DNA from: a virus
Virus record (IMG/VR): IMGVR_UViG_3300042861_001913
Direction: 5' to 3' (one strand)
DNA: 64,000 nt
This document shows, one piece after another, positions 1-64,000 of this stretch. Position 1 is the first letter of the stretch; each line of letters begins with the position of its first letter. The translations under genes and the position numbers were made by a program. The notes beneath the pieces are model-generated. The model was not told the DNA's origin. It ran no database searches and saw only the letters and a program-made list of their open reading frames with translations.

Positions 1-428
1 GTTATCAAGCTCAAGGTCAACAACAGAATTGGGGTATGCCTCCTAATGATCCTAACGCTCGTTATGCTAGTGGATTACCTATTGCAGCATTTAGTATGGC
101 TGAGATGGAAGCAGTTAATCGTGCTGAATTTGGGTTGATTGATGGTGCTAAGAATTTAGGTAAACGTGTTATTAATCGCGTTAGTAAAGATGCAGGTGAT
201 GTTAAACAATCATTTGTTAATAAAGTTGCACAACAGAAGCAAGTTAGAGCGGGAAGATTACGTAAATACGGATCTGCAACGTATCAAGCTGGTAAAACTG
301 CATTGAAGACTAAAACTGGTAAAGGTTTAGCTATCGGTACTGGTGCATTAGTTGGAACTGGTGCATTAGTTGGAGCATACCGTGGATTAAGTGGTAAGAA
401 ACAAACTGTAATAAATAACTATAACTAA
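1..428 (+). CDS. small Gly-zipper virion-associated family protein; 5' end probably outside the window
   Basis: The frame is open from nt 3, upstream of the ATG at 36. It has a PIAAFSMAEMEAVNRAEFG motif shared with the next ORF, and a C-terminal GxxxG-rich hydrophobic segment with a basic tail. Confidence 0.5.
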   Translation, partial: YQAQGQQQNWGMPPNDPNARYASGLPIAAFSMAEMEAVNRAEFGLIDGAKNLGKRVINRVSKDAGDVKQSFVNKVAQQKQVRAGRLRKYGSATYQAGKTALKTKTGKGLAIGTGALVGTGALVGAYRGLSGKKQTVINNYN

Positions 429-433
429 CGTCT

Positions 434-1069
434 ATGAATTATACAAATCGTCCTATTGCTGCCTATACGATGGCAGAATTTGAATCATTAACTAGTGACA
501 ATGCTGATTTCGCTAGAGGTAAAGATAAGAAGAAACGTAAATCTCGTGCTGGTTTATATGCAGGACTTGGTGCTGGTGCAGGATTAGCGGGAATTGGTAC
601 TAGATATGCTGGTGCTGAAATTAGTTCTCGTATGGGAAGTAAATACTTAGATAGACCTCAAGATAAAATGACAGCACAAGGTTATTTAAAAGCTCGGAAA
701 GCTGCAGAATCTGGTGGTGGTGGAGAATTATTTAATCGTGATATTAAAGCTGTTAAAGATTTAGGTGGGCGAGTTAAGAACTACGATTATAAAGGCGCAC
801 CAGGACGAGCATTTGATAGTGTTAAAGCAGGTGGTAATCGAGCTAAATCAGCATTTGAAACTATTGTAGGTAATGCTCAATCTTATGGTGCTGCTGAACG
901 TGGTTCTGCTACAGGTATGAAAGGATTTGGTAAAGCTGCTATTGGTGGACTTAAAGGTATAAGTGCTACTCGTGCTGGTAAGATTGGACTTGGTTTAGCT
1001 GCTGCTGGTACTGCTGCTGGTGCTGGTTATGGTATTTACAAAGCAATGAAGAAAGGTAAGAAAAAATAA
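434..1069 (+). CDS. leader-family protein (ADFARGKDKKKRK leader plus Gly/Ala-rich hydrophobic segments)
   Basis: N-terminus is PIAAYTMAEFE..NADFARGKDKKKRK followed by GLYAGLGAGAGLAGIG. C-terminus is AAAGTAAGAGYGIYKAMKKGKKK. Paralog of 1069, 6514, 7240, 7587, 12549 and 22062. Confidence 0.6.
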   Translation: MNYTNRPIAAYTMAEFESLTSDNADFARGKDKKKRKSRAGLYAGLGAGAGLAGIGTRYAGAEISSRMGSKYLDRPQDKMTAQGYLKARKAAESGGGGELFNRDIKAVKDLGGRVKNYDYKGAPGRAFDSVKAGGNRAKSAFETIVGNAQSYGAAERGSATGMKGFGKAAIGGLKGISATRAGKIGLGLAAAGTAAGAGYGIYKAMKKGKKK

Positions 1070-1350
1070 TGCAGTTATTATCTGACTACCGAATAGCTGA
1101 TTTCGCTAGGACTCCTGGTAGTAAGGATAAGAAACCTCGCAAGTTTAGCTTACGTAAATTAGGTAGAGCTACATTAACTAGTGAAGCTGCTAGTGGTGCA
1201 GCTAATGGAGCGCAAATCGGTGGAGTCTTAGGTTTAATATCTAGTAACCCTAAAAATACATTTCGTAGAACATTAAGAGGTAGTGCTGCTGGATTAGCCA
1301 TTGGTACAGGACTCGGTATAAGACACGCATATAAACAACAAAACAAATAA
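1069..1350 (+). CDS. leader-family protein
   Basis: MQLLSDYRIADFARTPGSKDKKPRK leader and C-terminal GSAAGLAIGTGLGIRHAYKQQNK. Its start overlaps the preceding stop (TAATG). Confidence 0.55.
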   Translation: MQLLSDYRIADFARTPGSKDKKPRKFSLRKLGRATLTSEAASGAANGAQIGGVLGLISSNPKNTFRRTLRGSAAGLAIGTGLGIRHAYKQQNK

Positions 1351-1362
1351 CTAAGACGTATT

Positions 1363-3168: not shown

Positions 3169-4357
3169 GTTATCGCGCCCACTATCCTACTTTTTTCTTA
3201 CTATGGGTTCAGTTTCTAATTTTCTTACCGATAAGTTGCAAGCTAAAGTTGCCGAAACTCTAGTAGACGATACTATTGCTCGTCTGCGTCAGAGAACTAA
3301 ACTTATTGATCAATTCATGCCTATTAAGACGTATGAGGACGATGAGTTCCTAGCATACGTAAGTGAACGTCTCACACCAGTTGCGAACTTTATTGCTCCT
3401 GGTGCTGAACCTCCAGTTATCTCTCATGGTGGTTTCCGTCGAGTAATCGGTCAACTAGCTAAGTTAGGTAATAGCTATTCATTCGATGAAGTAACTCAGA
3501 AACAGATGCGTAAGGCAATGGAAGAAGCTGCCTATAAACGCGCTAGTGTTATGACCATGAAGTTAACTGATAACTCCGTCATTAAGGGTACTAACGATAT
3601 GCTCGTTAAGTATCTCTATGGTCACATTGAGGGGATCGTCCAATCTCATGCTGATAGACTTACTAGCATGGCTTGGCAAGTTGTTCAGACTGGTCAATTG
3701 AGTGTATCTGATGCAATTACTAAGGTTGCATGGACAATTGATTTCCGTCGTCCTGGTGCTAGTTATAACCACTTCCCTGATGCTCTTGTTGCTACTGGTA
3801 ACACTGCATCTCCTAAGTTGAACAAGTGGACTGACTACGCTAATGCTGATGGTATCGCTAACTTAGAAGATGCTGTAACTACTTATGTCAATACTAATGG
3901 TTACAAGCCTGATCTCATCGTAATGAGTAATACTGCATTGCGTGATCTTCAGAAACAAGCATCTACTATTGCTCGTGCTAGACAATCAGTTGGATTTGCA
4001 CAAGTAGGTTCTGTTAGCTTCCCAATGTTACAAGAGGTAATGGCTTCTAATAACCTACCTCCTATTAAGGATTATGATGAGTTCTATCAAGTAGATAATA
4101 CCTACTCTGGTAATACTAATACTATTGATAGCTACATCAGTAATGCTCGATTCCTTAATGAGAATTGCTTCGTATTCCTCAAGGATGGAATGGGTGAGCA
4201 AGCTATTGGTACTCCTGAAGAACAGAAAGTTGTTAAAGATGGTGTATTAACAGGTACTGAATCTCCTGTAATGGTACGTGTTTATGAGAAGACAACTGTG
4301 CCTATCAACGATGTTTTGCAAGCGATTGAAACTTTTTGTAGTCGCCTATTTAAGTAA
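3167..4357 (+). CDS. major capsid protein, HK97 fold, lambda gpE-like; probably exon 1 of an intron-interrupted gene
   Basis: Layout resembles lambda gpE (W.D....D.I, KPDLIVMS, C-terminal VP..D...). The likely true start is the ATG near 3203, because the 3167 ATG lies inside the upstream tandem repeat. The ORF stops 1-2 codons into group I intron-like sequence. Confidence 0.6.
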   Translation: MLSRPLSYFFLTMGSVSNFLTDKLQAKVAETLVDDTIARLRQRTKLIDQFMPIKTYEDDEFLAYVSERLTPVANFIAPGAEPPVISHGGFRRVIGQLAKLGNSYSFDEVTQKQMRKAMEEAAYKRASVMTMKLTDNSVIKGTNDMLVKYLYGHIEGIVQSHADRLTSMAWQVVQTGQLSVSDAITKVAWTIDFRRPGASYNHFPDALVATGNTASPKLNKWTDYANADGIANLEDAVTTYVNTNGYKPDLIVMSNTALRDLQKQASTIARARQSVGFAQVGSVSFPMLQEVMASNNLPPIKDYDEFYQVDNTYSGNTNTIDSYISNARFLNENCFVFLKDGMGEQAIGTPEEQKVVKDGVLTGTESPVMVRVYEKTTVPINDVLQAIETFCSRLFK

Positions 4358-6084: not shown

Positions 6085-6512
6085 ATGGGTAGACGTATTG
6101 GTAGTAAAGATAAAGTTAAACGACGCAATCAATTTGGTTTAACTAGAAGTGATCTAATTAATGAACGTAAGAAACAAGGAACTACGCAATAGCGGGATCT
6201 GCGGTAGGTGGGACAATTGGATATGGTGTAAGTAGAAAATTAACTAAAAGATTTGATGCAAATATTAAGTTAGCTCAAAATAATTTAGATGATGCAATTG
6301 CACGTAAACCTACTTTAATGAATGACGTTAGACTTAGTGCAATGAATGATGATGTAATAAATCAATATAAGAATGCTATTAATAAAACTAGAAATGCAAC
6401 TAGATTACTTAAAGTTGCAACACCATTAGCAGGAGCAGCTATAGGAACTGGAATTACAATGGGTTACTTAGCTAATCAACGGGCAAAGAAACAACGTAAT
6501 AGGCTCAAATAA
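6085..6512 (+). pseudogene. leader-family gene split by a frameshift
   Basis: MGRRIGSKDKVKRRN.. (6085-6192) ends at a TAG. The Gly-zipper part (AIAGSAVGGTIGYG...ATPLAGAAIGTGITMGY) continues in the -1 frame from about 6171 to 6512. Confidence 0.4.
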
Positions 6513-7239: not shown

Positions 7240-7593
7240 ATGATAACTCTAATCAATGATCTGGCTAACTTCGCACGAGGTAAAGGTGATAAGGATAAAC
7301 GTAAGAGACAAGTTAAACGTGCTGGTAGATGGTGGACTCCTAATCAAGTAACTGCTGCAACTAGACCTGGTAAAAAGAATGCTGTATTAGCAAGTAAGAA
7401 AATAAATGGAGTTGTTAAATATAAACTACTTAACTTTGGTGACAGTACAATGAGTGATTGGACTAAACACAAGGATAAGAAGAGACGTTCAAATTACTTA
7501 TCTCGTAGTGGTGGTATTAGAAATAAGAGTGGTGAATTAACTAAAAACGATAAGTTCTCAGCTAATTACTGGAGTAGGAAAATTAATTGGTAA
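7240..7593 (+). CDS. leader-family protein with basic C-terminal domain
   Basis: MITLINDLANFARGKGDKDKRKRQ leader. No hydrophobic segment. W/K/R-rich C-terminus. Confidence 0.55.
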   Translation: MITLINDLANFARGKGDKDKRKRQVKRAGRWWTPNQVTAATRPGKKNAVLASKKINGVVKYKLLNFGDSTMSDWTKHKDKKRRSNYLSRSGGIRNKSGELTKNDKFSANYWSRKINW

Positions 7594-8441
7594 CTAATAT
7601 GTTTCTAATATCAGATGTAACTACATTTAGTAAGAAAAAAGGTAAACGTAATAACTTATTACTTGGTGGCGCAATTCTCGGTACTGGTCTATTAGGAGTT
7701 GTAGGAGTTAAATCTTATCTTCGTAATGGTAAATTAGTTAGACAATATAATCGTAATCAGGTTGTTAAAACTACCGTTAAATCAACTAATGTAAACGAGT
7801 TAAATAGTTATTTAAGTAATAGTAACTTTAGTTTTAATGAGTTGTTTAGTAAGTTTAATTTAAATAAAATAGACGATGAGTATGAAGGTAATCTATTTGG
7901 TGCAATTAAAGATAAATACGTTAAACAACATAACTTAAGTAAGTTAGAACAAACTACTTTAAATAAATATATTAAACATGATGGACATGACGATATTAAT
8001 AACTATCTTATAACTGGTGATGCTACAGATGAAGTTAAACAAACTGTAAATAACTTAAATAACTTATTTGATAGACTACCTAAGTTAAATAATAGTGAGA
8101 CTTATAGATATGTTAAAGATGTTAATCCAAATGATTTAATATCTAACTACAAAATCGGAAGTATAGTAACTGAACCTAGATTTACATCAGCTACAACTAA
8201 TGAAAGATTTAATGACGATTTCCTTAACTACTCTAAAGTGAGGTTTAAGATTAAATCTAAATCAAATAACTCTAATGCAGTTGATATACGTGGGTTTAAT
8301 CCTAAAGAAGAAGAGGTTATATTTAAGAGAGGAACTAGCTTTAAAATAAATAACATTAAACAACATGAGTTTACTTATGAAACTAGATCAAATAAAAATA
8401 AACTCTGGAAAGGTTATGAAATTGAAATTGAAGAAGTCTAA
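7587..8441 (+). CDS. leader-family protein with a Gly-zipper segment and C-terminal ADP-ribosyltransferase domain
   Basis: Probable start is the ATG at 7599 (MFLISDVTTFSKKKGKR). Hydrophobic LLLGGAILGTGLLGVVGV follows. The C-terminus has YIKHDGHDDINNYL, then an R-S-E triad: ETYRYV, RFTSATT, PKEEEVIF. Confidence 0.75.
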   Translation: MVTNMFLISDVTTFSKKKGKRNNLLLGGAILGTGLLGVVGVKSYLRNGKLVRQYNRNQVVKTTVKSTNVNELNSYLSNSNFSFNELFSKFNLNKIDDEYEGNLFGAIKDKYVKQHNLSKLEQTTLNKYIKHDGHDDINNYLITGDATDEVKQTVNNLNNLFDRLPKLNNSETYRYVKDVNPNDLISNYKIGSIVTEPRFTSATTNERFNDDFLNYSKVRFKIKSKSNNSNAVDIRGFNPKEEEVIFKRGTSFKINNIKQHEFTYETRSNKNKLWKGYEIEIEEV

Positions 8442-9343: not shown

Positions 9344-9488
9344 TAACTACACTTGACTTAGATACAAACTAACTAACTATCTAAGTCACCTCATTATAAC
9401 TGATAAATAGTTAAAATACATAACATTCTCCTTTTTTCTTACAAGTTAAACATTTCCAATTATAATTAAGTAAACTACATTAATTAAT

Positions 9489-12548: not shown

Positions 12549-12818
12549 ATGTTCCTAATGACAGATATCAATAGGAGTGCTGTCATTAGAACAGCTAACT
12601 TCAAACGCGGTCGAGATAAAGTTAAGCGTAAGAAAAAAAAGGGAATCAACTACAAAGAAACTAAAGATACAGTTAAAGTAGGTCAAAAGTTAGCATCAAC
12701 TGGGACTAATATAAGTCGTGAACTTCGTGGTTGGCTCAAATTAGTAAATCGCACGAAAGATGACCTTCGACGACTTAATTTCCTCAGAGCAGCTAGAAAA
12801 ATAGCTAAAGGTGAATAA
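12549..12818 (+). CDS. leader-family protein (short, basic)
   Basis: MFLMTDINRSAVIRTANFKRGRDKVKRKKKKG leader. Confidence 0.55.
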   Translation: MFLMTDINRSAVIRTANFKRGRDKVKRKKKKGINYKETKDTVKVGQKLASTGTNISRELRGWLKLVNRTKDDLRRLNFLRAARKIAKGE

Positions 12819-14899: not shown

Positions 14900-15370
14900 A
14901 TGAATAATCTACTATTTAAATCTATGAATAACTTTGATATAACATACAGTGACGGAACTATAGATACAGTTAAGCGTGTAACTCGCACTAAGTTAAAGGA
15001 CTTAATTGTACTACAACAGAAACTCCTCTACTTTTTTCTTACTCATAATGCTAATGTCGGGGCTTGTGTTGCTGATGATGCGTGTTGGAGTGTAATTGAA
15101 ACTACATCTAAATTACTAGCAGTAGTTGGAGATGGAGCAGTCAAGTTAGAGTTACTTGAGGATAATTTAGAACAGTTAAGTAATATATTCTTCACTACAT
15201 CTACACCTGAAGAAATAGCTCAATACACTAATATCGGTAAGATGATTGAAGCTGAAACATGGTACAAGCCATCTCTCATCAGTCAGTTACATCAACTTAA
15301 TTATCGAGGAGATAGTGGTGAAGCAATAAAAAAAATGACACAGGAACAACCAGAAGTTCCTACGCTATAG
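14900..15370 (+). CDS. tail assembly chaperone (G-like)
   Basis: Lies just before the tape measure and contains the slippery run A_AAA_AAA near its 3' end. An alternative start is the ATG near 14924. Confidence 0.6.
   Translation: MNNLLFKSMNNFDITYSDGTIDTVKRVTRTKLKDLIVLQQKLLYFFLTHNANVGACVADDACWSVIETTSKLLAVVGDGAVKLELLEDNLEQLSNIFFTTSTPEEIAQYTNIGKMIEAETWYKPSLISQLHQLNYRGDSGEAIKKMTQEQPEVPTL
15328..15334 (+). promoter_or_regulatory. -1 programmed ribosomal frameshift slippery heptamer A_AAA_AAA
   Basis: GCA ATA AAA AAA ATG in the zero frame. The -1 frame stays open for about 93 codons, to the tape-measure ATG. Confidence 0.6.
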
Positions 15371-15615
15371 ATTTAGCGGCATTAATTGAGATATATGGTG
15401 GTGTTGAGAATGCACTACTACTAGTTAACTCACTAGATGATCTGGAGATACATGATCTGATTAATCAGACAACTGAGTTACGTAAAGATCCATCAGTTCG
15501 AGATGCTGAGGAAGTAGAAAGAGATTGGAATGATTATGTTATTAATAATGATCTAGATCAGGAGATAATCGTAGACGGTAAGAAAACAAGTATAAATCAA
15601 TTAATGGGGTTCTAA
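15328..15615 (+). CDS. -1 frame extension of the tail chaperone (GT-like fusion product)
   Basis: The open -1 frame reads ..KKNDTGTTRSSYAIDLAALIEIYGG...VDGKKTSINQLMGF. Its stop overlaps the tape-measure start. Confidence 0.5.
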   Translation, partial: KKNDTGTTRSSYAIDLAALIEIYGGVENALLLVNSLDDLEIHDLINQTTELRKDPSVRDAEEVERDWNDYVINNDLDQEIIVDGKKTSINQLMGF

Positions 15616-22847: not shown

Positions 22848-22880
22848 TTTGACAACGTAAGAAAAATAGGATAACTAATC

Positions 22881-30712: not shown

Positions 30713-30748
30713 ATATTATAATTACTCATATACACTATTTTCTTACTC

Positions 30749-33850: not shown

Positions 33851-33852
33851 TC

Positions 33853-45976: not shown

Positions 45977-46162
45977 TTAGTTGTCGTCGCATGGGAACAC
46001 ATCCTTACAATAAGTCCAATTAAGTACATTTTGTTCAATAACTTCTAAATCAGAGTCTATCCATCTGTAATCTATATATTTAGCTAATAGATATATTTTC
46101 TTACCGCTTTCATATTCTATTTGAACTAAACATTCATCAGTTGTATCAGGTAACTTATTCAT
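45977..46162 (-). CDS. hypothetical small protein
   Basis: 61-aa ORF that overlaps the upstream gene's stop. Confidence 0.35.
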   Translation of the reverse strand: MNKLPDTTDECLVQIEYESGKKIYLLAKYIDYRWIDSDLEVIEQNVLNWTYCKDVFPCDDN

Positions 46163-48397: not shown

Positions 48398-48781
48398 TTA
48401 ATTCTGTATTAACTCTACTAATTGGTGGAAATATTCAACTTGCATAAATAATGTAACAGTTAATTCATAACACTTACCCCACAGTTGACGTGATTTAGTG
48501 TCATCTTCTAATCCATATTGAGTTAGTAGTTCAATATAAGCTAACTCTTCTTTATCAATTAATGTAGGTATATTAAATTCGCGCATTTCAAATACACTAG
48601 TTTTTCTTACCTGTTTATCTTTATCAAATAACCATTCAACACGAACAAACTCTTTATCTGCTATTAATACATCTGCTTCTACAACATTGTATTTTTCATA
48701 GCGAGTAATCTGTTCAGCGTTCAATTCAATTTGATATAGTTTACCTTCGTATTCAAATGTTAAGTTCATATAATTCTCCAA
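48398..48781 (-). CDS. hypothetical protein
   Basis: 127-aa ORF. Confidence 0.4.
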   Translation of the reverse strand: MENYMNLTFEYEGKLYQIELNAEQITRYEKYNVVEADVLIADKEFVRVEWLFDKDKQVRKTSVFEMREFNIPTLIDKEELAYIELLTQYGLEDDTKSRQLWGKCYELTVTLFMQVEYFHQLVELIQN

Positions 48782-49481: not shown

Positions 49482-51670
49482 GCTCCTGTTGAACAGCTAC
49501 TATCTAACGATTGTTCTTCATACTTATTCTCAATTTTAGCTAATATTTCGATTAACTCTGTTTCAGTTAACTTAACATTAAATAGATTGTGATATTCGTA
49601 TTCTGTAATTGGTTCATACGGCATTAATGGATATGATGCTTTACCATCGCTAATTGGATCAAATCTAGGTAGAAATGAAACACCTATAATGTCATTCCAA
49701 TTATCATTTATCCAATTTGCGGCAATATCATATTCATCTGGAGCTAATGTAATAGTAGCTGATATGTTATGACCTCTATCAGCATAATTAACTTGAGCTA
49801 ACTTATATCGTTCTAATTGATCTATGGCAGATTCATCAATAGCTCTAATTGTGGTATTAGTTTTAATTGGGAATGTAAAAACCCAAGTAGTACATTCACT
49901 GGCAAATAAACTATCACCTTGATTGTTTTCAGGAACTGGAGTTAATCCTAGATTTAATAATACTCTAGCTAGTGGATCTGTTTTACTAAATCTAACTCGA
50001 CGTAAGTAATAAGGTGAATATGCTCTATGAATACCCGATGAAACAGTAGGTAATTGACTAATAGTACCTTCAGGTTTCATTAACGTAACTCTAGTGCTTC
50101 TATTAATACCAAGATAATTATGATATTCATTTGCAGCATTAATAGCTATTAGTTTAACCCATTTAAAATAGTATTCTTGTTGTTCTGTATCCCATTCTAG
50201 TAGATCAAAAGCATCCATTAAACCAGTCATAGATACACCAAGTAATCTATCTCTCTTCTGAAGTTCATCCCATCTTGGATGCCACTGTGTAGCAGTAGTT
50301 TGACGTGAACCAATTCTAGTAATAAGTTCAATTGTTTTCTTACCTAATTCCCAATTATATTCCCATTTCTTAGTTTTCTTATTAAAATATACGTGAGCTT
50401 TAACGTTCTTAGTTGTGAGATTACATGACTGTCCATCGTCTAAACCCGCTTCGGCACAAGGATTTGTTCCAGCGATAGGTGATTCTGCTAATAAGTTCGC
50501 ATTACCTATAATCCAGAATCCAGGTTCTCCATTTGATTTAATTGATGTCATTACATCTTTAATTTTATCTAATCCAGGATTCTCGTAAAACAATATAGAG
50601 TTGTTTGACATTGATCTAATAGCTCTATACTGAACTTTATCTGGATCATCATATAGGTTCAACTTAGCTGTAATAAAATTATTATCATTAGCATCACCTA
50701 ATCCAATTTCAGCAGTTCTACGAACGCCACCTGACACTACGTTTAATCCAATTGAATTAGCTATATCAAGTACACCAACTGAATCTAATACACCATTACA
50801 ACGTTTAATAATCATTAATATGTTATTAAACATCTCCAATAGAGCTTTATGTCCACTAGCTCTACCACCAAATGTTTTAATTAACGTTCCTTCAGGACGA
50901 ATTAAATTGTAATTAAACGTAATCGTCTTAATATTAGAATAAGTTAATAAGTGTAAGAAACAACGTAGAGCATTACACCAATCTTCTTTACTATCACCAA
51001 TAGTTAACTTAGCGTTAGTGTAAGTAGATAAATCTTCATTAATAAAGTTATCATCATCATTAATAATAGATTTAGGACTTAAATAAATGTAATTAGGATT
51101 AATATCATCTTTAGTTAATACTAAATGACTTCCATCTTCATCATCTTTTAAATAAAAGTAATCATCATGTTTAATTGTAATATCAGGATTAAACTTAGGT
51201 AATTTACTAATGTATTTATTTTCAACACTAAATCCAGTTCCTGCTCCAATTAATAACCAATAGAAGATTTCACTAAATGCACTTAAATTATCAATTACTT
51301 TAAATGTACAATTCCAACTACTACTAGGATCTTTAGTTGTTTGAGGTGTTCCCGCAGTCCATAATGATCTACCACTTGGAAACCCTCGCATATTAAACAT
51401 CATCTCAAATAAAGATTCTGCTTCTTTTTTCTTACTATCATCAGATGAAATATTATCTAATGATAATGAGTATTCAATATTACGAAGAATTGTTTCACAC
51501 CATTTCTCACGTCTATTTAATTCTTTAATAAATCTACTGTAAGTGCGTAAGAAAACAGGTAATCCTAGTTCACCAAAGGGAGGTTCTAATAAAATGTATT
51601 TAGAATAAAAATCCCAAGTAATATATTGGGGCGCAATCAAATTGTAGTAGTCTTTGGTATTAATTGTCAT
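49466..51670 (-). CDS. nrdJ: adenosylcobalamin-dependent (class II) ribonucleotide reductase, monomeric RTPR-like
   Basis: 734 aa. Contains GTNPCAEAGL (active-site Cys loop) and a C-terminal redox pair CSTGACPIR. Confidence 0.8.
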   Translation of the reverse strand: MTINTKDYYNLIAPQYITWDFYSKYILLEPPFGELGLPVFLRTYSRFIKELNRREKWCETILRNIEYSLSLDNISSDDSKKKEAESLFEMMFNMRGFPSGRSLWTAGTPQTTKDPSSSWNCTFKVIDNLSAFSEIFYWLLIGAGTGFSVENKYISKLPKFNPDITIKHDDYFYLKDDEDGSHLVLTKDDINPNYIYLSPKSIINDDDNFINEDLSTYTNAKLTIGDSKEDWCNALRCFLHLLTYSNIKTITFNYNLIRPEGTLIKTFGGRASGHKALLEMFNNILMIIKRCNGVLDSVGVLDIANSIGLNVVSGGVRRTAEIGLGDANDNNFITAKLNLYDDPDKVQYRAIRSMSNNSILFYENPGLDKIKDVMTSIKSNGEPGFWIIGNANLLAESPIAGTNPCAEAGLDDGQSCNLTTKNVKAHVYFNKKTKKWEYNWELGKKTIELITRIGSRQTTATQWHPRWDELQKRDRLLGVSMTGLMDAFDLLEWDTEQQEYYFKWVKLIAINAANEYHNYLGINRSTRVTLMKPEGTISQLPTVSSGIHRAYSPYYLRRVRFSKTDPLARVLLNLGLTPVPENNQGDSLFASECTTWVFTFPIKTNTTIRAIDESAIDQLERYKLAQVNYADRGHNISATITLAPDEYDIAANWINDNWNDIIGVSFLPRFDPISDGKASYPLMPYEPITEYEYHNLFNVKLTETELIEILAKIENKYEEQSLDSSCSTGACPIR

Positions 51671-51901: not shown

Positions 51902-52674
51902 CCAAATATGTATTCAATAGCTAACTTAATTAATGGTATGTGTTTAGCAGTATACAATGAATTACCATTAAGTTTAAATAGTGGTTGTTGTTGTGATAGA
52001 TTAAGCCACGCTGATACGAGTTGTCCCGCTCTTATACGTTGACCTTTATCTAAGTTAATTGCATGATCAAGTAAGTAATCCTTCAATATAAATGATTCTG
52101 TAGTTTCCTCAATTAACTGAAACTCTTGTAATGCTTTATCTAAACCAGGATATAGATTTAATACTTCCTGTAGCGCATTATGTTGATTATTTAATTGAGT
52201 TATTTGTTCATCTTTAACTACATTACTTTCAATTAGATATTTAACTTGATCAGAATAATCAGTTTTAATTTGAGTTACTGATTTAGTTAATTCAGCTATT
52301 GCAGATAATAACACATCTTTAGTATCTGAAACATAATACCCTTGTTTTCTTACACTAGGAAGAATCACCTCAGCTACATAATTTGTAAATGCTTCAGCTT
52401 CAGGTTTATTACTACGGAATGCAATTTTATAAACACCAGGTTCATTTATTAACCAAGTGTTATTAGGTATTTGTACTAGGTCAGGAGTTTCCTGAGATGA
52501 TACATCATCATACTGAGCCTTCCATACGTCACTAATTTTATCTAATGATTGAGAACCTGTCCATGCAATATCTAATGCCTTGAACACATCAGCAGCTACA
52601 AACCAAGGATTGCTATCAATCTCAACTACTCTAACTCGATTATCTTGAAAATTAAACAACTGTAATTCTGACAT
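51892..52674 (-). CDS. Bro-N domain protein (P4), sharing middle and C-terminal modules with P1-P3
   Basis: FNFQDNRVRVVEIDSNPWFVAADVFKALDI is a classic Bro-N sequence. ..LNLYPGLDKA.. and DYLLDHAINLDKGQRIRAGQLVSAW align with the paralogs. Confidence 0.75.
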   Translation of the reverse strand: MSELQLFNFQDNRVRVVEIDSNPWFVAADVFKALDIAWTGSQSLDKISDVWKAQYDDVSSQETPDLVQIPNNTWLINEPGVYKIAFRSNKPEAEAFTNYVAEVILPSVRKQGYYVSDTKDVLLSAIAELTKSVTQIKTDYSDQVKYLIESNVVKDEQITQLNNQHNALQEVLNLYPGLDKALQEFQLIEETTESFILKDYLLDHAINLDKGQRIRAGQLVSAWLNLSQQQPLFKLNGNSLYTAKHIPLIKLAIEYIFGWN

Positions 52675-52748
52675 AAATAAAATCTCTGTAAGGTAAGAAA
52701 AAAAGGATTTAGTATTTAAATTATTATTGATTTCATGTATAAAACATA

Positions 52749-55627: not shown

Positions 55628-55674
55628 AGACTTATTTTAGCTCAAGCTGTATACCATAGATTATTTTTCTTACC

Positions 55675-57114
55675 TTATACGTTATCGTCATTAATTACTA
55701 CTTCATCTTCATCATCTATCAAGCTATCTAAATCTTCAGCAGCTTGTCCAGTAACTGTACTAAATACAGTTCCATCTGGTTCAACAATGTTAATAATCTT
55801 AATATCCATATCGTTAATTAATCCTATTTTAGTTATTTCACGTATTGTTCGATTGATGTAGTGATCATAATTAATGTTGTGGTCATCAGCATCATAATAA
55901 TCATTGAACAATGTTACTACATTACCACTAGCATATACAACTTCTTTCTCACCTTGATACTCGATTGTCTCATATACAGCAGGTATATTAACTCTATCGG
56001 ATACCTTAGTTGTGAAGTTCTTCATACGACCACTAGCGGGATTAATGCGTCGTTCTGTCTCATATACAGCAGGAATTATGATGCGTTCACTAACTAATCT
56101 CTTCTCCCTCTTAGTACCTATAGTGACCTTCTTGAGTATGATATCGCGTCCAGTAGGATTACTCACAAAGAATCTGAGTGTCTTCTGTAACTCAGTTCGT
56201 TCAGTTACTAATCCATCTTCAATTAGATAGGAGTAATTAGTAAACTGACTACCTACTTTCTGACTAATACAGAAGTCATATATGTCCTTGTGACCTCGAA
56301 TAAAGTCATTTGGATGTATTCCTTCTAAATAATATTTCTGCAAGGCTAGAGCTACAATTGGAGCATCAAAGCCCTTAAGAATACCGTTAATTGGAAGATA
56401 CTTACCATTACTGCTAGGTAAATCGTAAGAAAAAAGAGGTTCAAGTGTTGCTCCCTGTGGAACGAAACTACCCTTAATCTTAACTGTACCGTCAGTTTTA
56501 CGCGCTAAATAATTATTGACATCTCGGCGTACATATAAATCATACTCAGCATATTCAAAAGTAAACTTAGTTTCAGTTTCCCATTCCTCAATAATTGACT
56601 TAACTGAATCTACTTCTAACTTATGGATGTACAACAATATACCATCTGTATTAACAGATATGATATTGTGGTTAGCTAAATGTAACCGTTCTATTATCTG
56701 TAATAGAAATAGTTGATTGTTAACAGTTGTTTTGTAAGTACATAACAAATCACTTAAAAGGAAATTAGCGTATCCAAACAAACCAAAACACGAATTGAGC
56801 GATATCTTGAGTCCGTACTCTAATGCAGCATATATTACACTTTCTTTCTTACGTTTCTTATATGCCTTACGATCATTAAGTGCATCAAGTAATGTCTCAA
56901 TAAATAATTCTAAATCTAAGTGTTCTGGTGCAATACCGTAGTTAATAATAGCTGATGGGTAAAATGAGACGATATCCGCATCTAATAATACGTAGTCGTT
57001 TTCAGCTTTGAATATCCCTGGTTTATCAACACTATGTAAACCTCCAAGCCCAAGTTGGATTGTTAAATCACCTATTGTTACGGGTGGTAATTTAAGATCA
57101 AAGTTTTTACTCAT
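55675..57114 (-). CDS. family B DNA polymerase, polymerase-domain ORF
   Basis: DADIVSFYPSAI (motif A), KISLNSCFGLFGY (motif B) and SVNTDGILLY (motif C). Confidence 0.8.
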   Translation of the reverse strand: MSKNFDLKLPPVTIGDLTIQLGLGGLHSVDKPGIFKAENDYVLLDADIVSFYPSAIINYGIAPEHLDLELFIETLLDALNDRKAYKKRKKESVIYAALEYGLKISLNSCFGLFGYANFLLSDLLCTYKTTVNNQLFLLQIIERLHLANHNIISVNTDGILLYIHKLEVDSVKSIIEEWETETKFTFEYAEYDLYVRRDVNNYLARKTDGTVKIKGSFVPQGATLEPLFSYDLPSSNGKYLPINGILKGFDAPIVALALQKYYLEGIHPNDFIRGHKDIYDFCISQKVGSQFTNYSYLIEDGLVTERTELQKTLRFFVSNPTGRDIILKKVTIGTKREKRLVSERIIIPAVYETERRINPASGRMKNFTTKVSDRVNIPAVYETIEYQGEKEVVYASGNVVTLFNDYYDADDHNINYDHYINRTIREITKIGLINDMDIKIINIVEPDGTVFSTVTGQAAEDLDSLIDDEDEVVINDDNV

Positions 57115-58008: not shown

Positions 58009-58347
58009 TTATGAAGGTTCTACCAACCATATATTATCTACAACTATTGGTGTTTTTAAATGAATGGGAATGTCATCTTCGTCGTCCCATTCATAGTTAA
58101 TTAAAGTAATATTGATATTATCATTCTCAATTACTATGTCATAATATCCATCTAAATCATCATTAATTGAACACGTTAACTTACTATCAATAATGCTGCA
58201 ACAATTAAGTTTGATAAAACTATCATCATCTAACTGTAGTTTAAATAAATCACAGTGTAATTCAACTCTATTGATTGATGTAAGAAAAATAAGTAACTTA
58301 TCAACTACTTCTTTTAATTGTTTAATTATAGACATGGATATTTCCAA
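58009..58347 (-). CDS. hypothetical acidic protein
   Basis: 112-aa ORF. Confidence 0.4.
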   Translation of the reverse strand: MEISMSIIKQLKEVVDKLLIFLTSINRVELHCDLFKLQLDDDSFIKLNCCSIIDSKLTCSINDDLDGYYDIVIENDNINITLINYEWDDEDDIPIHLKTPIVVDNIWLVEPS

Positions 58348-58547: not shown

Positions 58548-59066
58548 CTACATCTCTTTTTTCTTACGCAATATAGGTTTTTCAATTAATTGTGTTTCGT
58601 AAATTAAGCTACTATCAATAATCTCAAGTCGTTTACCATTAACAGTAGCATTAATATCATATAACTTTAATACTGCATTACCATCACTAACACGTCCATT
58701 GAGTTTAATAGTTTGATAATTTCTACCATACTGTAATCTAACAATTAGATAGTTATGATTGAGATTCTCAAATATTACCCTACCAATAATGTTAACTACA
58801 TCTAGTTCTACATTAGGTTGATCAATAACTCTACCAATTATAGTGAATGATAGATATGGAGTTTGTGTATCACTCTGATTATAGATAGCTACATTATTAG
58901 TATTAGGTACTAAAATTAGTTCATTGCTTTCAGCCAAGTCTAGTTCATCATTATCTACTAGATATTGTACTTTTTGACTCAGTGTACATGGATAAGTGCT
59001 GCCAAATGCAGTTAGTGTACCGTTACAATAAGTCGCTGTCGTGATTACTCGTGCTTTCTGTTTCAT
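58548..59066 (-). CDS. hypothetical protein (internal IIGRVI duplication)
   Basis: 172-aa ORF lying between the helicase and the polymerase. No confident motif. Confidence 0.4.
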   Translation of the reverse strand: MKQKARVITTATYCNGTLTAFGSTYPCTLSQKVQYLVDNDELDLAESNELILVPNTNNVAIYNQSDTQTPYLSFTIIGRVIDQPNVELDVVNIIGRVIFENLNHNYLIVRLQYGRNYQTIKLNGRVSDGNAVLKLYDINATVNGKRLEIIDSSLIYETQLIEKPILRKKKEM

Positions 59067-60810
59067 ATAGATTCAAGTGTTCCGGTTTAAATGTTCTATC
59101 GGGCATATTGTCTAGTGTAATCATGTGATAACTATTCTCCCTATCTACTTTTCTAAATTCAATGTTGATTACTTTATTTATAATAGCAGGTTCTTCTATA
59201 ACTTGTACAGTATCTCCTACTTTAAATTCACATGGGTTTAGTAATAACACAAGTTTATTACGTTCATCATTAGTTAACTTAGCTTGAACGTCTTTACGCT
59301 CGGTAATAGTAAGTGATTTAACCAGTTCTTTAACTGCATCAACTCCATCATCAATAGCTGCAACTAACTTAACTTTAATTACTTCTAACTCACTTTGATA
59401 TAACGCTGCTACACGTTCTTTCTCTTCAGCTTTATATTTCTTATCTGCCTCAGCTTCTAGATATACAGTCATCCATGATTCTCCACTACTATCAATAGCA
59501 TATATAAATGCTCTGTTATTACCGACATAACGTATGATACCTTCAGTAGATGTCATATCGTTGAGTCGCTTAACTACATCATTACGAGATGCGGCAGTTA
59601 GTTCGACTATATCATTAAGTGTTAACCCATAGACTTTAACCTCAGTATCCTCTACATCAACTTCATCACGCCATTGTTCCCATCGTTCAAATAATAATCG
59701 CAGTATTTGATTCTGTAATTCAATATTCTCAATTGATAATACTGATTCCTTAAGTACCTTAAAGTACCAATAGTTAGCTTCATCTTTCTCGAATAATAAA
59801 CTTAACTTAATAGGTTCACCATCACGAGGTATGGTGTGAACATTAACAGTACCATCATCAGCAGCAAACATACTCCATACACCATCATTAGCGCGAGTTA
59901 AGGCACTAGATCCTGCCACACCATTCATCATACCAGTACGATTATTAGCGTTAGCCATCTTAGTATTATGGTGCAGTAGAAGAATACTGAATCCATGTTC
60001 CTGAGCTAATGATTGTAACTTATAGAGCGCACTTGGTACTTCAGGACTATATTCTGTATAACCTGATACCTTGAGACTAGCCGCTAATGTATCAATAATA
60101 ATAAGATTGATATTCTTCTCTTTAACTATATCTAGTATCTTAGTTTGATCTAATACAATATCTACATTACGAGTTACTATTAACTTCTCACTATTAATGA
60201 GTTCCTTATATAACTCAGGTTCTTCTAACTCAAGTAACTGTAAACCGTGATCATAGATACGATTTATAGTAGTACCATCAATAGGTTCTTCGTTCTCAAT
60301 AAATAGAACATTGCCCGCAGTAGATTCTCTATTGAGAAATGGTGTACCTCTAGCTACAGCAACCGCCGCATGAGTAGCTAAATTAGTTTTCCCTACCTTT
60401 GGACTAGCAACTACCATTATGAGTTGACCAAATTTAAGTAGTCCCTTAAATATCCATTGAGTAGCTTTATCTTTACGTAAGTTAAGTAACTCAGCTAACG
60501 TATAGAGTTTGATCTCTTGTTGCTCTACGCTATATACTTGAATTAACTGTTCAATGTCTTTCTTATCTGTTACAAACTTAGACATCCATTCAGTTAATTG
60601 AGCTTTAATTCTCTTCTGTTTAAGTAATGATTCAGAACTTGTCATTACAGCAATACGTTTACGAAATTCACTTTCTAATAGTGTATTAAAATCAGTTTCT
60701 ATTTCATCTGGTGTTTTATCATAATCAGAACAATCTCGATGAATTACCTCGTCTCTAAGTTGCGGTGTTAGTTCCAACAACATCTGTAAATAAATGTTGT
60801 AATCTTGCAT
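59023..60810 (-). CDS. replicative helicase-like P-loop ATPase (AAA_25/RepA-DnaB-like)
   Basis: VVASPKVGKTNLATH (Walker A), LIIIDTLAASLK (Walker B) and LLLHHNTK. It lies next to the primase. Confidence 0.7.
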   Translation of the reverse strand: MQDYNIYLQMLLELTPQLRDEVIHRDCSDYDKTPDEIETDFNTLLESEFRKRIAVMTSSESLLKQKRIKAQLTEWMSKFVTDKKDIEQLIQVYSVEQQEIKLYTLAELLNLRKDKATQWIFKGLLKFGQLIMVVASPKVGKTNLATHAAVAVARGTPFLNRESTAGNVLFIENEEPIDGTTINRIYDHGLQLLELEEPELYKELINSEKLIVTRNVDIVLDQTKILDIVKEKNINLIIIDTLAASLKVSGYTEYSPEVPSALYKLQSLAQEHGFSILLLHHNTKMANANNRTGMMNGVAGSSALTRANDGVWSMFAADDGTVNVHTIPRDGEPIKLSLLFEKDEANYWYFKVLKESVLSIENIELQNQILRLLFERWEQWRDEVDVEDTEVKVYGLTLNDIVELTAASRNDVVKRLNDMTSTEGIIRYVGNNRAFIYAIDSSGESWMTVYLEAEADKKYKAEEKERVAALYQSELEVIKVKLVAAIDDGVDAVKELVKSLTITERKDVQAKLTNDERNKLVLLLNPCEFKVGDTVQVIEEPAIINKVINIEFRKVDRENSYHMITLDNMPDRTFKPEHLNLYETESTSNHDSDLL

Positions 60811-61588
60811 ATAGAAGTTCCTTTATATTATGTGTACCTACCAAATCAGCTATATCACCACCATCATCAGATGTAACATCATCAAGAGGTACAAGATAAA
60901 ATGGTTTACCAAGTGACCATGCTACATATTTAATTAAGTCAGATTTAACTTTACCGATTTTATCATTATCTGGAAGATAAATAATTCCAGTTATATGAGG
61001 ATTACTTAACTGTGCGAATAGATAATTATTACTCCATCCAAATGAAGGGGGTGATAGTGTTAACCATCCAGTAATTGAACTAACTATATCTGCACATTTC
61101 TCACCTTCAGCAATTAAAACACTACCATTAGTTATGTATCTTTGATTAAATAGACTTGTATTCTTACCTCTACCATATATCCATTGATTACCAACCTTAT
61201 ATTTAGGAAACAATTGCTTACTACCACCACTATCAACTCGTTCAACAATAAATTCATCAGAGTAAGAAAAATAAGTGATGCGGCGATCTCCTATTTGATA
61301 TTGTTTAGCTAACTGATAATGGGGCGGACTAACCATGAGTGCATCAAACTTAGTTATTGTAGGTTGTTTAATAACTAATGTTGATGGCGTAATTATGCCA
61401 CTAGAACTAGATAAACCAAGAGCTGTTCTAATTTGAGCAGTTGAACAATTCTCAGTTACACATAAGTATGCCCAATCTAGTTTCTTATACTTTAATTTGC
61501 CACCACAACTAGGACACTTATAACATATCTCAGTTGCTAATTCACTTAATATTTCTAACTTACAATCAGCTAGATTAAATTTAGGCAT
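60755..61588 (-). CDS. DNA primase (zinc finger plus Toprim)
   Basis: CYKCPSCGG...C..ENC zinc-binding motif, Toprim LIAEGEKCADIV, and YLPDNDKIGK. Confidence 0.65.
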   Translation of the reverse strand: MPKFNLADCKLEILSELATEICYKCPSCGGKLKYKKLDWAYLCVTENCSTAQIRTALGLSSSSGIITPSTLVIKQPTITKFDALMVSPPHYQLAKQYQIGDRRITYFSYSDEFIVERVDSGGSKQLFPKYKVGNQWIYGRGKNTSLFNQRYITNGSVLIAEGEKCADIVSSITGWLTLSPPSFGWSNNYLFAQLSNPHITGIIYLPDNDKIGKVKSDLIKYVAWSLGKPFYLVPLDDVTSDDGGDIADLVGTHNIKELLYARLQHLFTDVVGTNTAT

Positions 61589-62088: not shown

Positions 62089-62713
62089 TATAATAACTTT
62101 TAACTACACATCTACCACGTTTATTTGAAGTAGATAAATCATTCCAGTTATAGCCTTGTTGAAAACATAACTCTTGTACTTCACTTGTTTTCTTACCTTG
62201 AAGTTGTTTATGTGGTATTAGAGATTGACCTAGTGTATTAATTGAATTTCTAACTTGATCTTTCTGTCTCCAGATAAAGTAATTACATACATCAGATTCA
62301 GGTATATTAAAACTTCTACTATCAAAATAAGCACGTTTAATATCACCATTCCAAATTAAGTTACTATTAACTGTAAATTCAACACTTGCAATAGCGGCAC
62401 TTATTGATTCTATTTTAGATTGATTATAGTTAAACCATGCTTCACTAGTTATCTCTTTATAGTCATGTAATAGTAAACTTATTTCATCTGATTGAATATA
62501 AGCAACTTGTACATCTTGAATTTCCTCACATAACTTAATAGCTGTTAAATTCATAACATTAATTAAGTTAGCATCAAACTTATTCTTCAATGGTTTAGTG
62601 TATGTATGAAACGCTTTACCATCGAGACGTATGATAACAGGTGTACGTCTAGTTAAATAGTGAGTACATCTACTCTCGTAATAACCTTTAATTCTATCTC
62701 CAAGTGAATCCAT
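61985..62713 (-). CDS. Thg1-like protein (tRNA-His guanylyltransferase family, 3'-5' nucleotidyltransferase)
   Basis: IIRLDGKAFHTY, VAYIQSDEISLL, FDSRSFNIPESDVCNYFIWRQKDQVRNSI and LQGKK line up with the Thg1 blocks VRLDGRNFHRF, AYGQSDEYSF and FDGRVV..YLSWRQ.DCHINN. Confidence 0.8.
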   Translation of the reverse strand: MDSLGDRIKGYYESRCTHYLTRRTPVIIRLDGKAFHTYTKPLKNKFDANLINVMNLTAIKLCEEIQDVQVAYIQSDEISLLLHDYKEITSEAWFNYNQSKIESISAAIASVEFTVNSNLIWNGDIKRAYFDSRSFNIPESDVCNYFIWRQKDQVRNSINTLGQSLIPHKQLQGKKTSEVQELCFQQGYNWNDLSTSNKRGRCVVKSYYNVGDTTRSSWIIDNEIPEFTKDRNYIEKYYAINT

Positions 62714-62750
62714 AATAGTACAGGGGTTAATTAACCCCTAGTTAAAGTGT

Positions 62751-63188
62751 TTAATTATTAAGTAACTTAGTTATCTCATCTAACTCTAATTGAGTTTTAA
62801 GATCCGCACTCATTAAGTTATTTAGACGTTTCTCTAATGTAGCCAACTCACTCTTCTTCGTACTGATACTTAATCTACTTAATCTAGTTTTAAGATCAAT
62901 TGTCCATTCATTTAATGTGTAACCTAGATAAGTAAACTTATTATCTAAACCTAATATTTCAGTTGCTCTAGTGTGCATAACTTCTTTATTAAGTAAGAAA
63001 ACAAGTATGTCTAGTATTTGTTGTTCATTTGCAGTTTGAATATTAACAATAGCATTAGCATCAACAAACCATTTAAATGCACAATTAGTAACCCAATTAG
63101 GTTTAACTTCAAGTGCCGCGATTTCAGCTTTCTTCTTATTTACGATATCGAGTAATTCTTGAACTTTAATATCAGACATATGTTTCAC
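62751..63188 (-). CDS. hypothetical protein
   Basis: 145-aa ORF, probably coiled-coil. Confidence 0.4.
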   Translation of the reverse strand: MKHMSDIKVQELLDIVNKKKAEIAALEVKPNWVTNCAFKWFVDANAIVNIQTANEQQILDILVFLLNKEVMHTRATEILGLDNKFTYLGYTLNEWTIDLKTRLSRLSISTKKSELATLEKRLNNLMSADLKTQLELDEITKLLNN

Positions 63189-63952
63189 TATCCTTGAATG
63201 TATTGTTTACCGTTAACTAAATGAACTACTAAATCAGAATAGTTCATTAATAAATCATCTTTAGTTACTGTTATGTATTTATCATGACAACTAACTTCAG
63301 TTGTGTTAACTGCATTGTTACTAACTGTAATTAACTTACAGTAACTTAACACAACGTAATCTGAAATTAATGGAAGATAACCCTGTAGATAATAACCATA
63401 GATATGACCATTAATCTCTTTATATACATAACGTTTATCATTAGTAGGAGTTAATTGAGTTAGAGATACATGACTTATAAGAGATATGTTTTTACTACAG
63501 TTCATTATCTCTAGTAAGTCAACATAGTTATCTACAGGTAACTCACTTAACCTAACTGATAAACTAGTTAATCCAGTTAGAGGAACTAACTTATTATTAT
63601 CATCAATAAACACATATCTCTTAACTAAGTCATAACTAGAATCACACCAGTTGTAATCATACCAATCATACTTACCAAGATAAGTTAAGTTAACTTGCTT
63701 TTTAGTTTGATAGATACATCCAGGTACTAAATCCCGCACACTTATTTTCTTACCTTGAAGAGATGTGAATTGATTGGCAGCTTTATATTCTTCACAGTTA
63801 GCTGGTAGTAATACTAATTTCTTACCATCCCAAGCATAGATAAACTCACCTTCTAACTCTCGCTTATTGCAGTTAGTATTCATTAATATGAATAGTAGAT
63901 TAGATGGTGTTATCTCAAATTCAAATCCTCTATCATCGTATACTCGAATCAT
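63188..63952 (-). CDS. hypothetical protein
   Basis: 254-aa ORF. Confidence 0.4.
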   Translation of the reverse strand: MIRVYDDRGFEFEITPSNLLFILMNTNCNKRELEGEFIYAWDGKKLVLLPANCEEYKAANQFTSLQGKKISVRDLVPGCIYQTKKQVNLTYLGKYDWYDYNWCDSSYDLVKRYVFIDDNNKLVPLTGLTSLSVRLSELPVDNYVDLLEIMNCSKNISLISHVSLTQLTPTNDKRYVYKEINGHIYGYYLQGYLPLISDYVVLSYCKLITVSNNAVNTTEVSCHDKYITVTKDDLLMNYSDLVVHLVNGKQYIQG

Positions 63953-64000
63953 TGATCTACCACTTGAATAGTGTGACCAACTATCTCTAGTTACATCCTT

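Follow-up and report, generated by a model that had tools for sequence, protein, structure and literature searches.

The viral DNA stretch analysed here, 64,000 nucleotides of IMG/VR record IMGVR_UViG_3300042861_001913 (hereafter the window, meaning the whole of that stretch), is part of a siphovirus-like phage related to freshwater cyanophages, and it is seeded with a 9-base word, GTAAGAAAA, that occurs about 30 times more often than chance allows, evenly spread and on both strands. The enrichment of this word, its sharpness, its conservation, its even spacing, its dialects in other phages and the presence of such a word in every lineage reached by primase-helicase homology were observed directly. 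With moderate confidence, the word is predicted to be the site that the zinc-ribbon/Toprim primase of the phage itself (60755-61588), working with the adjacent helicase (59023-60810), recognises as its cognate and uses for initiation; we infer from these sequence patterns that the primase is the reader of the word and that primers start there.

An exact scan of the window found 45 copies (the plus strand reads GTAAGAAAA 22 times and TTTTCTTAC 23 times), which makes the word the top-ranked 9-mer by frequency. The first-pass annotation, counting by eye, had arrived at 44 copies; this count was nearly right and not badly inflated, the copy at 17971 having been missed, and its coordinates were mostly correct, with two off by one (22857, not 22858, and 40304, not 40305). 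Near-variants of the GTAAGAAAC type, which it had placed at 393, 6167, 26424, 50953 and 57589, are found at 394, 6167, 50953 and 57579 on the plus strand and at 26423 on the minus strand, with another at 23157 (minus). Dinucleotide-preserving shuffles (n = 100) yielded 1.54 +/- 1.17 copies of the word, with a maximum of 5, and Markov models of order 1 to 4 predicted 0.8 to 1.6. When synonymous codons were shuffled within each gene, with all proteins and per-gene codon usage held constant and intergenic DNA left as it is, 13.8 +/- 2.2 copies resulted (largest count 20), including the 9 unshuffled intergenic copies; about 5 coding copies are thus expected, and 36 are observed. The earlier claim of an enrichment far above chance, acting on DNA, is borne out by shuffles and Markov models alike, and it survives the codon-preserving shuffle that had been proposed as a check on it. 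The word is also sharp: each of its 27 one-mismatch variants occurs 0 to 6 times, which is the chance level, and GT precedes 45 of the 52 occurrences of AAGAAAA. The flanks contribute a weak G at position -1 and, on the 3' side, [A/C/T]-A-R-R, with C nearly missing over about 7 positions.

Twenty-one copies lie in sense and 15 in antisense orientation within open reading frames (ORFs), and 9 are intergenic, although intergenic DNA (outside the ORF set used) makes up 9% of the window. All five stop-free reading frames are used, as had been noticed by eye, and the 22/23 split between strands together with the 21/15 split between sense and antisense agrees with the absence of strand or transcription bias reported at that stage. 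Because copies are found in sense and antisense, in spacers and in all five stop-free frames, the signal works at the level of DNA, not of protein or mRNA. A promoter, terminator or RNA-level signal is ruled out by the antisense orientation of 15 of the 36 coding copies; a mobile mini-insertion is likewise ruled out, the flanks not being conserved and orthologous sites differing by substitutions at constant length. That the word is a by-product of amino-acid or codon usage (Lys-Lys, Phe-Leu) or of base composition is exceedingly improbable: the genome is A+T-rich and the frame used most is xGT-AAG-AAA (Gly/Ser/Arg-Lys-Lys), as such an origin would have it, but the explanation is rejected by the codon-preserving shuffles, and it is at odds with the use of five frames, both orientations and spacers, with one-mismatch variants at chance level and with the depletion of other A-runs. 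The copies are listed below by coordinates, strand and context; all are exact except the near-copy in the last line.

1056..1064, +, GTAAGAAAA, sense, final codons of ORF 434-1069
3193..3201, -, antisense, 1 nt upstream of the probable capsid start ATG 3203
3220..3228, -, antisense, capsid gene
7394..7402, +, sense, ORF 7240-7593
7630..7638, +, sense, ORF 7587-8441
9434..9442, -, intergenic
12628..12636, +, sense, ORF 12549-12818
15034..15042, -, antisense, ORF 14900-15370
15578..15586, +, intergenic, upstream of the tape-measure gene
17971..17979, -, antisense, tape-measure gene (the copy missed by eye)
19117..19125, +, sense, tape-measure gene
20253..20261, +, sense, tape-measure gene
21792..21800, -, antisense, tape-measure gene
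22857..22865, +, intergenic
24238..24246, +, sense, ORF 23917-24747
25425..25433, -, sense, ORF 25096-25575(-)
29784..29792, +, intergenic
30114..30122, -, sense, ORF 29800-30219(-)
30738..30746, -, intergenic, 2 nt upstream of ATG 30749
31933..31941, -, TTTTCTTAC, positional orthologue in a sister phage (L181/L183 own word TTTTCTATC at the aligned position)
34868..34876, +, positional orthologue in a sister phage (GGTAAGAAAAAATA aligned to L181 AGGTAGAAAAAATA)
37188..37196, +, antisense, ORF 37043-37843(-)
39374..39382, -, sense, RecA-like ORF 39254-40174(-)
40304..40312, +, intergenic
41960..41968, -, sense, thymidylate synthase gene
42598..42606, +, antisense, dCMP deaminase gene
43353..43361, +, antisense, CYTH gene
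43844..43852, -, sense, ORF 43479-44006(-)
44268..44276, -, sense, ORF 44244-44807(-)
46096..46104, -, intergenic
46443..46451, +, antisense, HD-domain gene
48602..48610, -, sense, ORF 48398-48781(-)
50335..50343, -, sense, ribonucleotide reductase gene
51427..51435, -, sense, ribonucleotide reductase gene
51547..51555, +, antisense, ribonucleotide reductase gene
52345..52353, -, sense, Bro-N gene
52693..52701, +, intergenic, 18 nt from the Bro-N gene start 52674
55665..55673, -, intergenic
56425..56433, +, antisense, DNA polymerase gene
58280..58288, +, antisense, ORF 58009-58347(-)
58559..58567, -, sense, ORF 58548-59066(-)
61262..61270, +, antisense, within the primase gene
62188..62196, -, sense, Thg1-like gene
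62993..63001, +, antisense, ORF 62751-63188(-)
63745..63753, -, sense, ORF 63188-63952(-)
6167..6175, +, near-copy GTAAGAAAC, one A short (perfect word GTAAGAAAAC in two 99%-identical relatives)

At 3193, 30738 and 52693 the T-rich strand TTTTCTTAC lies 1 to 18 nt upstream of a start codon in sense orientation, and no Shine-Dalgarno sequence is apparent at these three places; the copies at 3193 and 3220 do flank the probable true capsid start, as had been pointed out from the letters alone. It is also true that the word is missing from the four stretches which the first-pass annotation took to be acquired, but with copies 1.4 kb apart on average no single gap is significant.

Conservation of the word in relatives, which had been left to be checked, was found. 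About 30 contigs at 95-100% identity carry it at 0.5-1.1 copies per kb, also in parts that extend beyond the ends of the window. Word sites are intact in 43 of 43 cases in alignments at 93-99% identity (84-93% of controls) and in 19 of 24 in alignments below 93% identity (46% of control 9-mers), and the sole differences in the word among relatives of at least 80% identity are 1-nt insertions or deletions in the A-run, as at window position 6167. To judge from these alignments, the word sites are under purifying selection. Spacing on each strand (about 2.9 kb on average) is more even than random, with coefficients of variation (CV) of 0.56 on the plus strand (p=0.003) and 0.69 on the minus strand (p=0.047), and plus and minus copies tend to alternate (32 runs observed, 23.5 expected, p=0.008). 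Along the window, the balance between strands shows no regional skew. Even spacing recurs in two of the related contigs described below, L321 (CV 0.40 and 0.52 on the two strands) and the plus strand of L320.

Comparison DNA, about 20 kb per genome, was fetched around homologues of the window primase and helicase. Each lineage with a full-length primase/helicase homologue and at least about 12 kb of DNA was found to have a sharp word of its own, on both strands. The dialects of this primase-helicase family are GTAAGAAAA, GTTAGAAAA, GGAAGAAAA, GCAGAAAAR (in the cultured Pseudanabaena phages Pam2 and PA-SR01) and aGTCCGAAAtAA, and they are distributed as follows (identities are to the window primase unless stated; contigs are numbered with the prefix L).

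L260, primase 44% identical, word GTAAGAAAA, 5 plus and 10 minus (15) in 20.8 kb
L261, primase 36%, word GGAAGAAAA, 9 plus and 8 minus (17) in 17.9 kb
L196, primase 30%, word GTTAGAAAA, 7 plus and 5 minus (12) in 17.4 kb
L270, primase 30%, word GTTAGAAAA, 6 plus and 7 minus (13) in 11.9 kb
Pam2, primase 29%, word GCAGAAAA[A/G], 17 in 40.7 kb and 22 in 50 kb
PA-SR01, primase 32%, word GCAGAAAA[A/G], 12 against 2.1 expected in 40.5 kb
L320 and L321 (JGI Ga0456421_01011 and Ga0400236_0000008), primase 32-33%, word aGTCCGAAAtAAtaaG, 23 plus and 22 minus in 43 kb
L323 (4.6 kb), reached via its helicase at 38% identity, word GTCCGAAA, 6 in 4.6 kb

When words were tabulated against lineages, every word was abundant in its own lineage only, with enrichments from 20-fold to several hundred-fold. 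Five primase clades thus have five words, and there is one word within each clade that has several members (the window and L260; L196 and L270; L320, L321 and L323; Pam2 and PA-SR01). The window and L260 have the identical word despite a primase identity of 44%; L261, over its 18 kb, has the primase and helicase as its sole genes in common with the window; and L320 and L321 have the same word and the same primase-helicase pair with different polymerases (Pol A in L320, a DnaE-type Pol III alpha in L321). Loci picked by DNA polymerase homology (26-41% identity) had no such word, and distant G+C-rich homologues of the Toprim domain alone had no word of the AGAAAA type. The broader idea that any Toprim homologue brings a word is unsupported, given these distant homologues and the fact that enriched 8-mers are common in control contigs. 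Each word has a variable trinucleotide at its 5' end (GTA, GTT, GTC, GCA, GGA or R-TA) and after it a conserved A-rich stretch, and conservation of the surroundings reaches 3' of the trinucleotide and scarcely 5' of it in all lineages. The word aGTCCGAAAtAAtaaG of L320 and L321 is sharp and, at up to about 16 nt, very long, and some plus-strand copies of the L261 word double as sequences resembling ribosome-binding sites.

Two sister phages of the window, L181 and L183 (the latter contig being IMGVR_UViG_3300042914_003763), have a structural module in common with it at 45-75% amino-acid identity and no GTAAGAAAA; their own word, AG[A/G]TAGAAAA, occurs about 1.3 times per kb on both strands. 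The window word is swapped for this dialect at constant length at two orthologous positions, 31933 (TTTTCTTAC replaced by TTTTCTATC) and 34868 (GGTAAGAAAAAATA replaced by AGGTAGAAAAAATA). A position kept while its word changes is what a co-evolving pair of reader and site would produce. Marine contigs of about 46% G+C with a distant Toprim homologue (L224, L248, L253 and about 10 similar ones) have a dispersed AaCCCGAACa (31 plus and 36 minus in 45 kb), which may be the same phenomenon in another clade. Three further repeats were discarded: CCTGATGG in L185 (5684-6521) and ACCGCGCC in L200 (15-339) are tandem arrays, with units of 132 bp and of 12 bp (AACCGCGCCGNN) respectively, and AGAAAAC in L031 is a weak, strand-biased repeat.

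The candidate reader of the word and its partner are encoded next to each other on the minus strand of the window.

60755..61588, -, candidate word reader, zinc-ribbon and Toprim primase of 277 aa, motifs CPxC..C..C, EGEKCADI, LPDNDKIG and DDGGD
59023..60810, -, partner helicase of 595 aa, AAA_25 / DnaB_C / RepA-like by Pfam and PDB matches

The zinc ribbon (CPxC...C..C) is at the N-terminus of the primase and the Toprim motifs EGEK, DxD and DGxD are also present, so that the word-bearing genome encodes a primase with both a zinc-binding and a catalytic domain. An AlphaFold model of the protein (pLDDT 83) had its best PDB matches by Foldseek in T7 gp4 and in DnaG of Bacillus, Staphylococcus, Escherichia, Pseudomonas and Aquifex, with probabilities of about 1 and modest TM-scores of 0.36-0.43. 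The Pam2 homologue is annotated as a DNA primase. The primase gene is directly upstream of the helicase gene in the window, and a helicase adjoins the primase in all word-bearing lineages examined.

A recognition site of this primase could work as follows. The helicase, of hexameric type, would travel along unwound single-stranded DNA while the zinc-binding domain of the primase scans that strand, binds the word and begins an RNA primer there. A site of at least 9 nt would be nearly absent from random DNA and too long to arise by chance, and therefore the genome would have been seeded with it wherever proteins tolerate copies, that is in five of the six frames, at gene ends and in spacers, at about 1 copy per 2.9 kb per strand, and the copies would be strongly conserved; this spacing is roughly the length of an Okazaki fragment. 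Should the specificity of the primase drift, the genomic copies would follow, giving rise to lineage-specific dialects. Known primases start at short sites, such as GTT/GCT for T4 gp61, GCA for SP6 and CTG for DnaG. The template could be the T-rich strand, with a primer beginning 5'-GUAAGAAAA; alternatively it could be the word strand, with the 5' trinucleotide (GTA here; GTT, GTC, GCA or GGA elsewhere) in the role of T7 GTC or T4 GTT, so that the trinucleotide would set the start (pppAC... for GT-) and the A-rich 3' flank would be bound without being copied. The second model appears to fit the pattern of conservation better because conservation lies 3' of the trinucleotide and scarcely 5' of it. 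In published work, the template site of T7 primase is 5'-(G/T)2GTC-3', about 10 nt of 3' flank reportedly contribute to its binding, and the site of AtTwinkle is 5'-(G/C)GGA-3' (PMC12839067, PMC2910064, PMC5737085). Among the several roles offered in the first-pass annotation, then, the evidence points to priming, by way of a zinc-ribbon/Toprim primase site and not of a purine-tract (RNase H-resistant) mechanism. More tentatively, there may exist a widespread primase-helicase family with a template specificity of 9-16 nt, each phage having a private, evenly spaced priming word that keys replication to its own DNA, with the key changing between lineages as the zinc-binding domain and its hundreds of sites in the genome co-evolve. 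If so, a private priming word could exclude co-infecting relatives and spare primers from being made on host DNA.

Several points weigh against the primase as reader. To our knowledge, the DnaG, T7 and T4 primases need 3-5 nt and a site of 9-16 nt is without precedent; the word is not a short site, having 9 invariant nucleotides plus flanks and reaching about 16 nt in L320 and L321. The co-occurrence of word and primase is partly built in by the choice of loci via primase/helicase homology, and a co-inherited gene outside the roughly 20 kb seen per genome could be the reader instead. A Rha-like gene also recurs, in the window and L320, although not in L260, L261 or L196. A lagging-strand signal served by one origin should be skewed between strands and the word is not, which requires either forks running both ways or another function. 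The primase of the sister phages L181 and L183 was not recovered with any query used, and L322 (Logan ERR10899986_15507), a contig of 4.9 kb with a primase homologue 36% identical, lacks a clear word of the kind seen elsewhere; its top words, from those 4.9 kb only, are AGGCGCC (7 copies) and CTCACTACTC (4 copies). Finally, the primase model leaves unexplained a strong depletion of other A/T runs in the window lineage. These runs are depleted about threefold in the window (AAAA/TTTT 628 observed, 1670 expected; A7 9 observed, 64 expected), and the ratio of observed to expected is graded across word-bearing lineages, from 0.38 in the window to more than 1.3 in L261 and Pam2. The depletion affects both the sense and antisense strands of genes, and most of the A5+ runs that survive are copies of the word. 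Thymidine hypermodification through a hydroxymethyldeoxyuridine pathway was dropped as a cause because ThyA accompanied by DHFR indicates ordinary dTMP synthesis.

The word could instead be read by another phage-encoded protein co-inherited with the replication module, such as a nucleoid or condensing protein, a binder of the Rha/Bro/KilA-N type, or a nicking enzyme whose nicks would prime strand-displacement synthesis or mark virion DNA. This is on the unlikely side, though sharpness, conservation and dialects would suit any co-evolving pair of protein and site, many neighbouring ORFs have no recognisable family, and the depletion of A-runs would be sensible if acting at other sites did damage. 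Among the genes of the window, none could be recognised as coding for a nickase, a methyltransferase or an HU/IHF-like protein, and even coverage strand by strand is not expected of a double-strand binder that is blind to orientation. A Bro/Rha-like reader, as named among the checks in the first-pass annotation, is a minor rival: Rha or KilA-N genes lie near the primase in L320, L321 and L261, and the Rha-like protein of the window has a homologue in L320 (25% identity, E 3e-17), thus in a single further clade that has a word and not in every such clade, since at E<1e-4 L260, L261 and L196 gave no Rha/Bro match and the window Bro-N protein is not homologous to the KilA-N protein of L261. An improbable further alternative is a Chi-like mark of self, which a helicase-nuclease or recombination machine would read as it moves processively along single-stranded DNA, with DNA lacking the word being degraded and the word either protecting phage DNA or triggering recombination-dependent replication. 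Even coverage in both orientations is what halting an enzyme from any end would need, copies come at about 1 per kb, the phage has RecA-like, RuvC and metallophosphoesterase genes, and words that differ between phages of probably common hosts would be in keeping with competition among them. Yet no RecBCD/AddAB-like helicase-nuclease was recognised in the window by Pfam or PHROGs, Chi sites as known are G-rich sequences of 5-8 nt that the host determines and whose orientation is skewed, unlike a word with 22 plus and 23 minus copies and no regional skew, and the words track the primase-helicase lineage.

An origin in the host, by imposition or by copying, as with uptake sequences in phages of Haemophilus and Neisseria or HIP1 in cyanophages, is very improbable. 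The density, both orientations, coding positions and even spacing do resemble those of uptake sequences, and Aphanizomenon phage CL131 mirrors the HIP1 of its host (70 copies in 50 kb, CL131 1-50000, contig L034). However, the window, L181 and CL131 have 83-90% nucleotide identity in a tail-fibre segment and three different hyperabundant words, and this shared tail-fibre module implies common hosts; CL131 has one copy of GTAAGAAAA, and the window has zero copies of HIP1 (GCGATCGC). Pam1, Pam3 and Pam4, which infect the same strain as Pam2 (PMC9382816), have 0-1 copies of the Pam2 word, though their G+C content is much higher. In contig L179, 8.2 kb of word-bearing, window-like DNA is joined to 7 kb of foreign DNA without the word. 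On this indirect evidence the word does not look host-imposed, since phages with a common host or tail-fibre module differ in their words or have none; the same evidence argues against the uptake-like or host word that had been among the roles proposed initially. A search for the host, in which genome contigs were queried with the ribonucleotide reductase protein and the Pam2 P-II protein, gave no match.

The remaining contents of the window are those of a tailed phage. Its genes include a 2141-aa tape-measure protein, major capsid, portal, class II ribonucleotide reductase, thymidylate synthase and DHFR, dCMP deaminase, RecA-like protein, RuvC, DNA polymerase, helicase and primase. The nearest capsid proteins are those of Pam2 and PA-SR01, the nearest tail-fibre-like proteins are those of CL131, Planktothrix phage PaV-LD and Nodularia phages, and near-identical contigs were found across many freshwater metagenomes. 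At 33452-33977, where the C-terminal tail-fibre segment is followed by the beginning of the next gene, the window has 85-90% nucleotide identity with gp035/gp036 of CL131, which suggests a host shared or overlapping with that of CL131, among bloom-forming filamentous cyanobacteria. The recombinant contig L179 departs from the window sequence at about 33954 (L179 8227-8253), and A-runs are abundant on its foreign side, which is without the word; the tail-fibre region looks like a hotspot of module exchange for host-range genes. A group I intron (Rfam RF00028, 80 bits) seems to interrupt the capsid gene; it lies at 4324-4544 (+), beginning where the first capsid-gene ORF (3167-4357) ends, and is followed by a GIY-YIG-type homing-endonuclease ORF at 4724-6025 (+). 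Three ORFs (8507-9229 on the minus strand, 23917-24747 and 46835-47686 on the plus strand) all match one gene of L181/L183 at 27-63% identity and are, by this similarity, scattered paralogues. An unusual set of accessory genes is predicted, for a Thg1-like 3'-5' nucleotidyltransferase (61985-62713), a protein resembling the class II aminoacyl-tRNA-synthetase core (47728-48396), a CYTH protein (42816-43475), a cobalamin adenosyltransferase (48828-49481) that adjoins the class II ribonucleotide reductase, and an ADP-ribosyltransferase (7587-8441) within the structural module. One gene for tRNA-Pro (UGG), at 23661-23734 (+), lies amid structural genes. Several 6-bp palindromes are avoided (CTGCAG 2 observed, 35 expected; AGATCT 2 and 29; CATATG 8 and 30), which is typical restriction-site avoidance. 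The ORFs just beyond the window, seen in L022 and L153, had no informative Pfam matches.

No prior description of the word was found in the literature searched, in which the 9-mer itself matched only primers and paramyxovirus gene-end signals, and the genome papers on Pam2 and PA-SR01 make no mention of it. The phenomenon is strong, with enrichments up to several hundred-fold, even if the reader is a different protein, and its occurrence in the cultured phages Pam2 and PA-SR01 makes it directly testable. If the primase is the reader, this would be the first recognition site of a replication enzyme to be written genome-wide as a long lineage-specific word, and primase specificity would extend far beyond the textbook trinucleotide. 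Both that specificity and the spacing of Okazaki fragments would then be readable from metagenome sequence alone, and the dialects, including the two orthologous sites that differ in theirs, would form a natural series of specificity switches for the reading of DNA by zinc-binding domains.

Other dispersed words resemble this one in part. The uptake signal sequences (USS) of Haemophilus (AAGTGCGGT) and the DNA uptake sequences (DUS) of Neisseria are likewise asymmetric 9- to 12-mers, present about once per kb in both orientations, evenly spaced, inside genes in several frames and divided into lineage dialects; they belong to a host chromosome and a competence receptor, however, whereas the window word tracks a phage gene module, its one-mismatch variants are not enriched, and phages with common hosts or a common tail-fibre module have different words. 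Chi, which is enriched in some phages such as P1, is also short, asymmetric, read on one strand, over-represented and lineage-specific, but it is 5-8 nt long, G-rich, read by host RecBCD/AddAB and skewed with replication, while the word has no skew and no such enzyme was recognised in the window. HIP1 is similarly hyperabundant in cyanophage genomes at about 1 per kb, but it is a palindrome tied to host methyltransferases and the word is asymmetric. The stoperators of cluster A mycobacteriophages (13-bp repressor sites) are dozens of dispersed asymmetric copies read by a phage protein; they are mostly intergenic and oriented with transcription, in contrast to a word with 36 of 45 copies inside genes and in both orientations. 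The nicks of T5, phiKMV-like phages and phage tf, a repeated short consensus in virion DNA recognised by a phage enzyme, can be likened to the word as well, but they are few and usually on one strand, and no nickase gene was recognised in the window, which is known here from assembled sequence alone. By analogy, the nearest mechanistic relative of the word is a primase recognition site. The sites of T7 gp4 (5'-(G/T)(G/T)GTC-3'), T4 gp61, SP6, DnaG and Twinkle ((G/C)GGA) are served, as would be the case in the window, by a primase of this fold beside a helicase, they are read on either strand, and the trinucleotides GTA, GTT, GTC, GCA and GGA of the words resemble their initiation trinucleotides. 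The known sites are 3-5 nt, whereas the word has 9-16 nt, is enriched, evenly spaced and strictly conserved, differs by primase lineage and has the primase as its putative reader; and we know of no primase that has spread its own site across a genome. In T7, 3' flanks are reported to modulate binding by the primase, which may be compared with the conserved 3' part of the word. Should the primase reading be correct, the word would stand beside uptake sequences, Chi and HIP1 as their phage-encoded equivalent.

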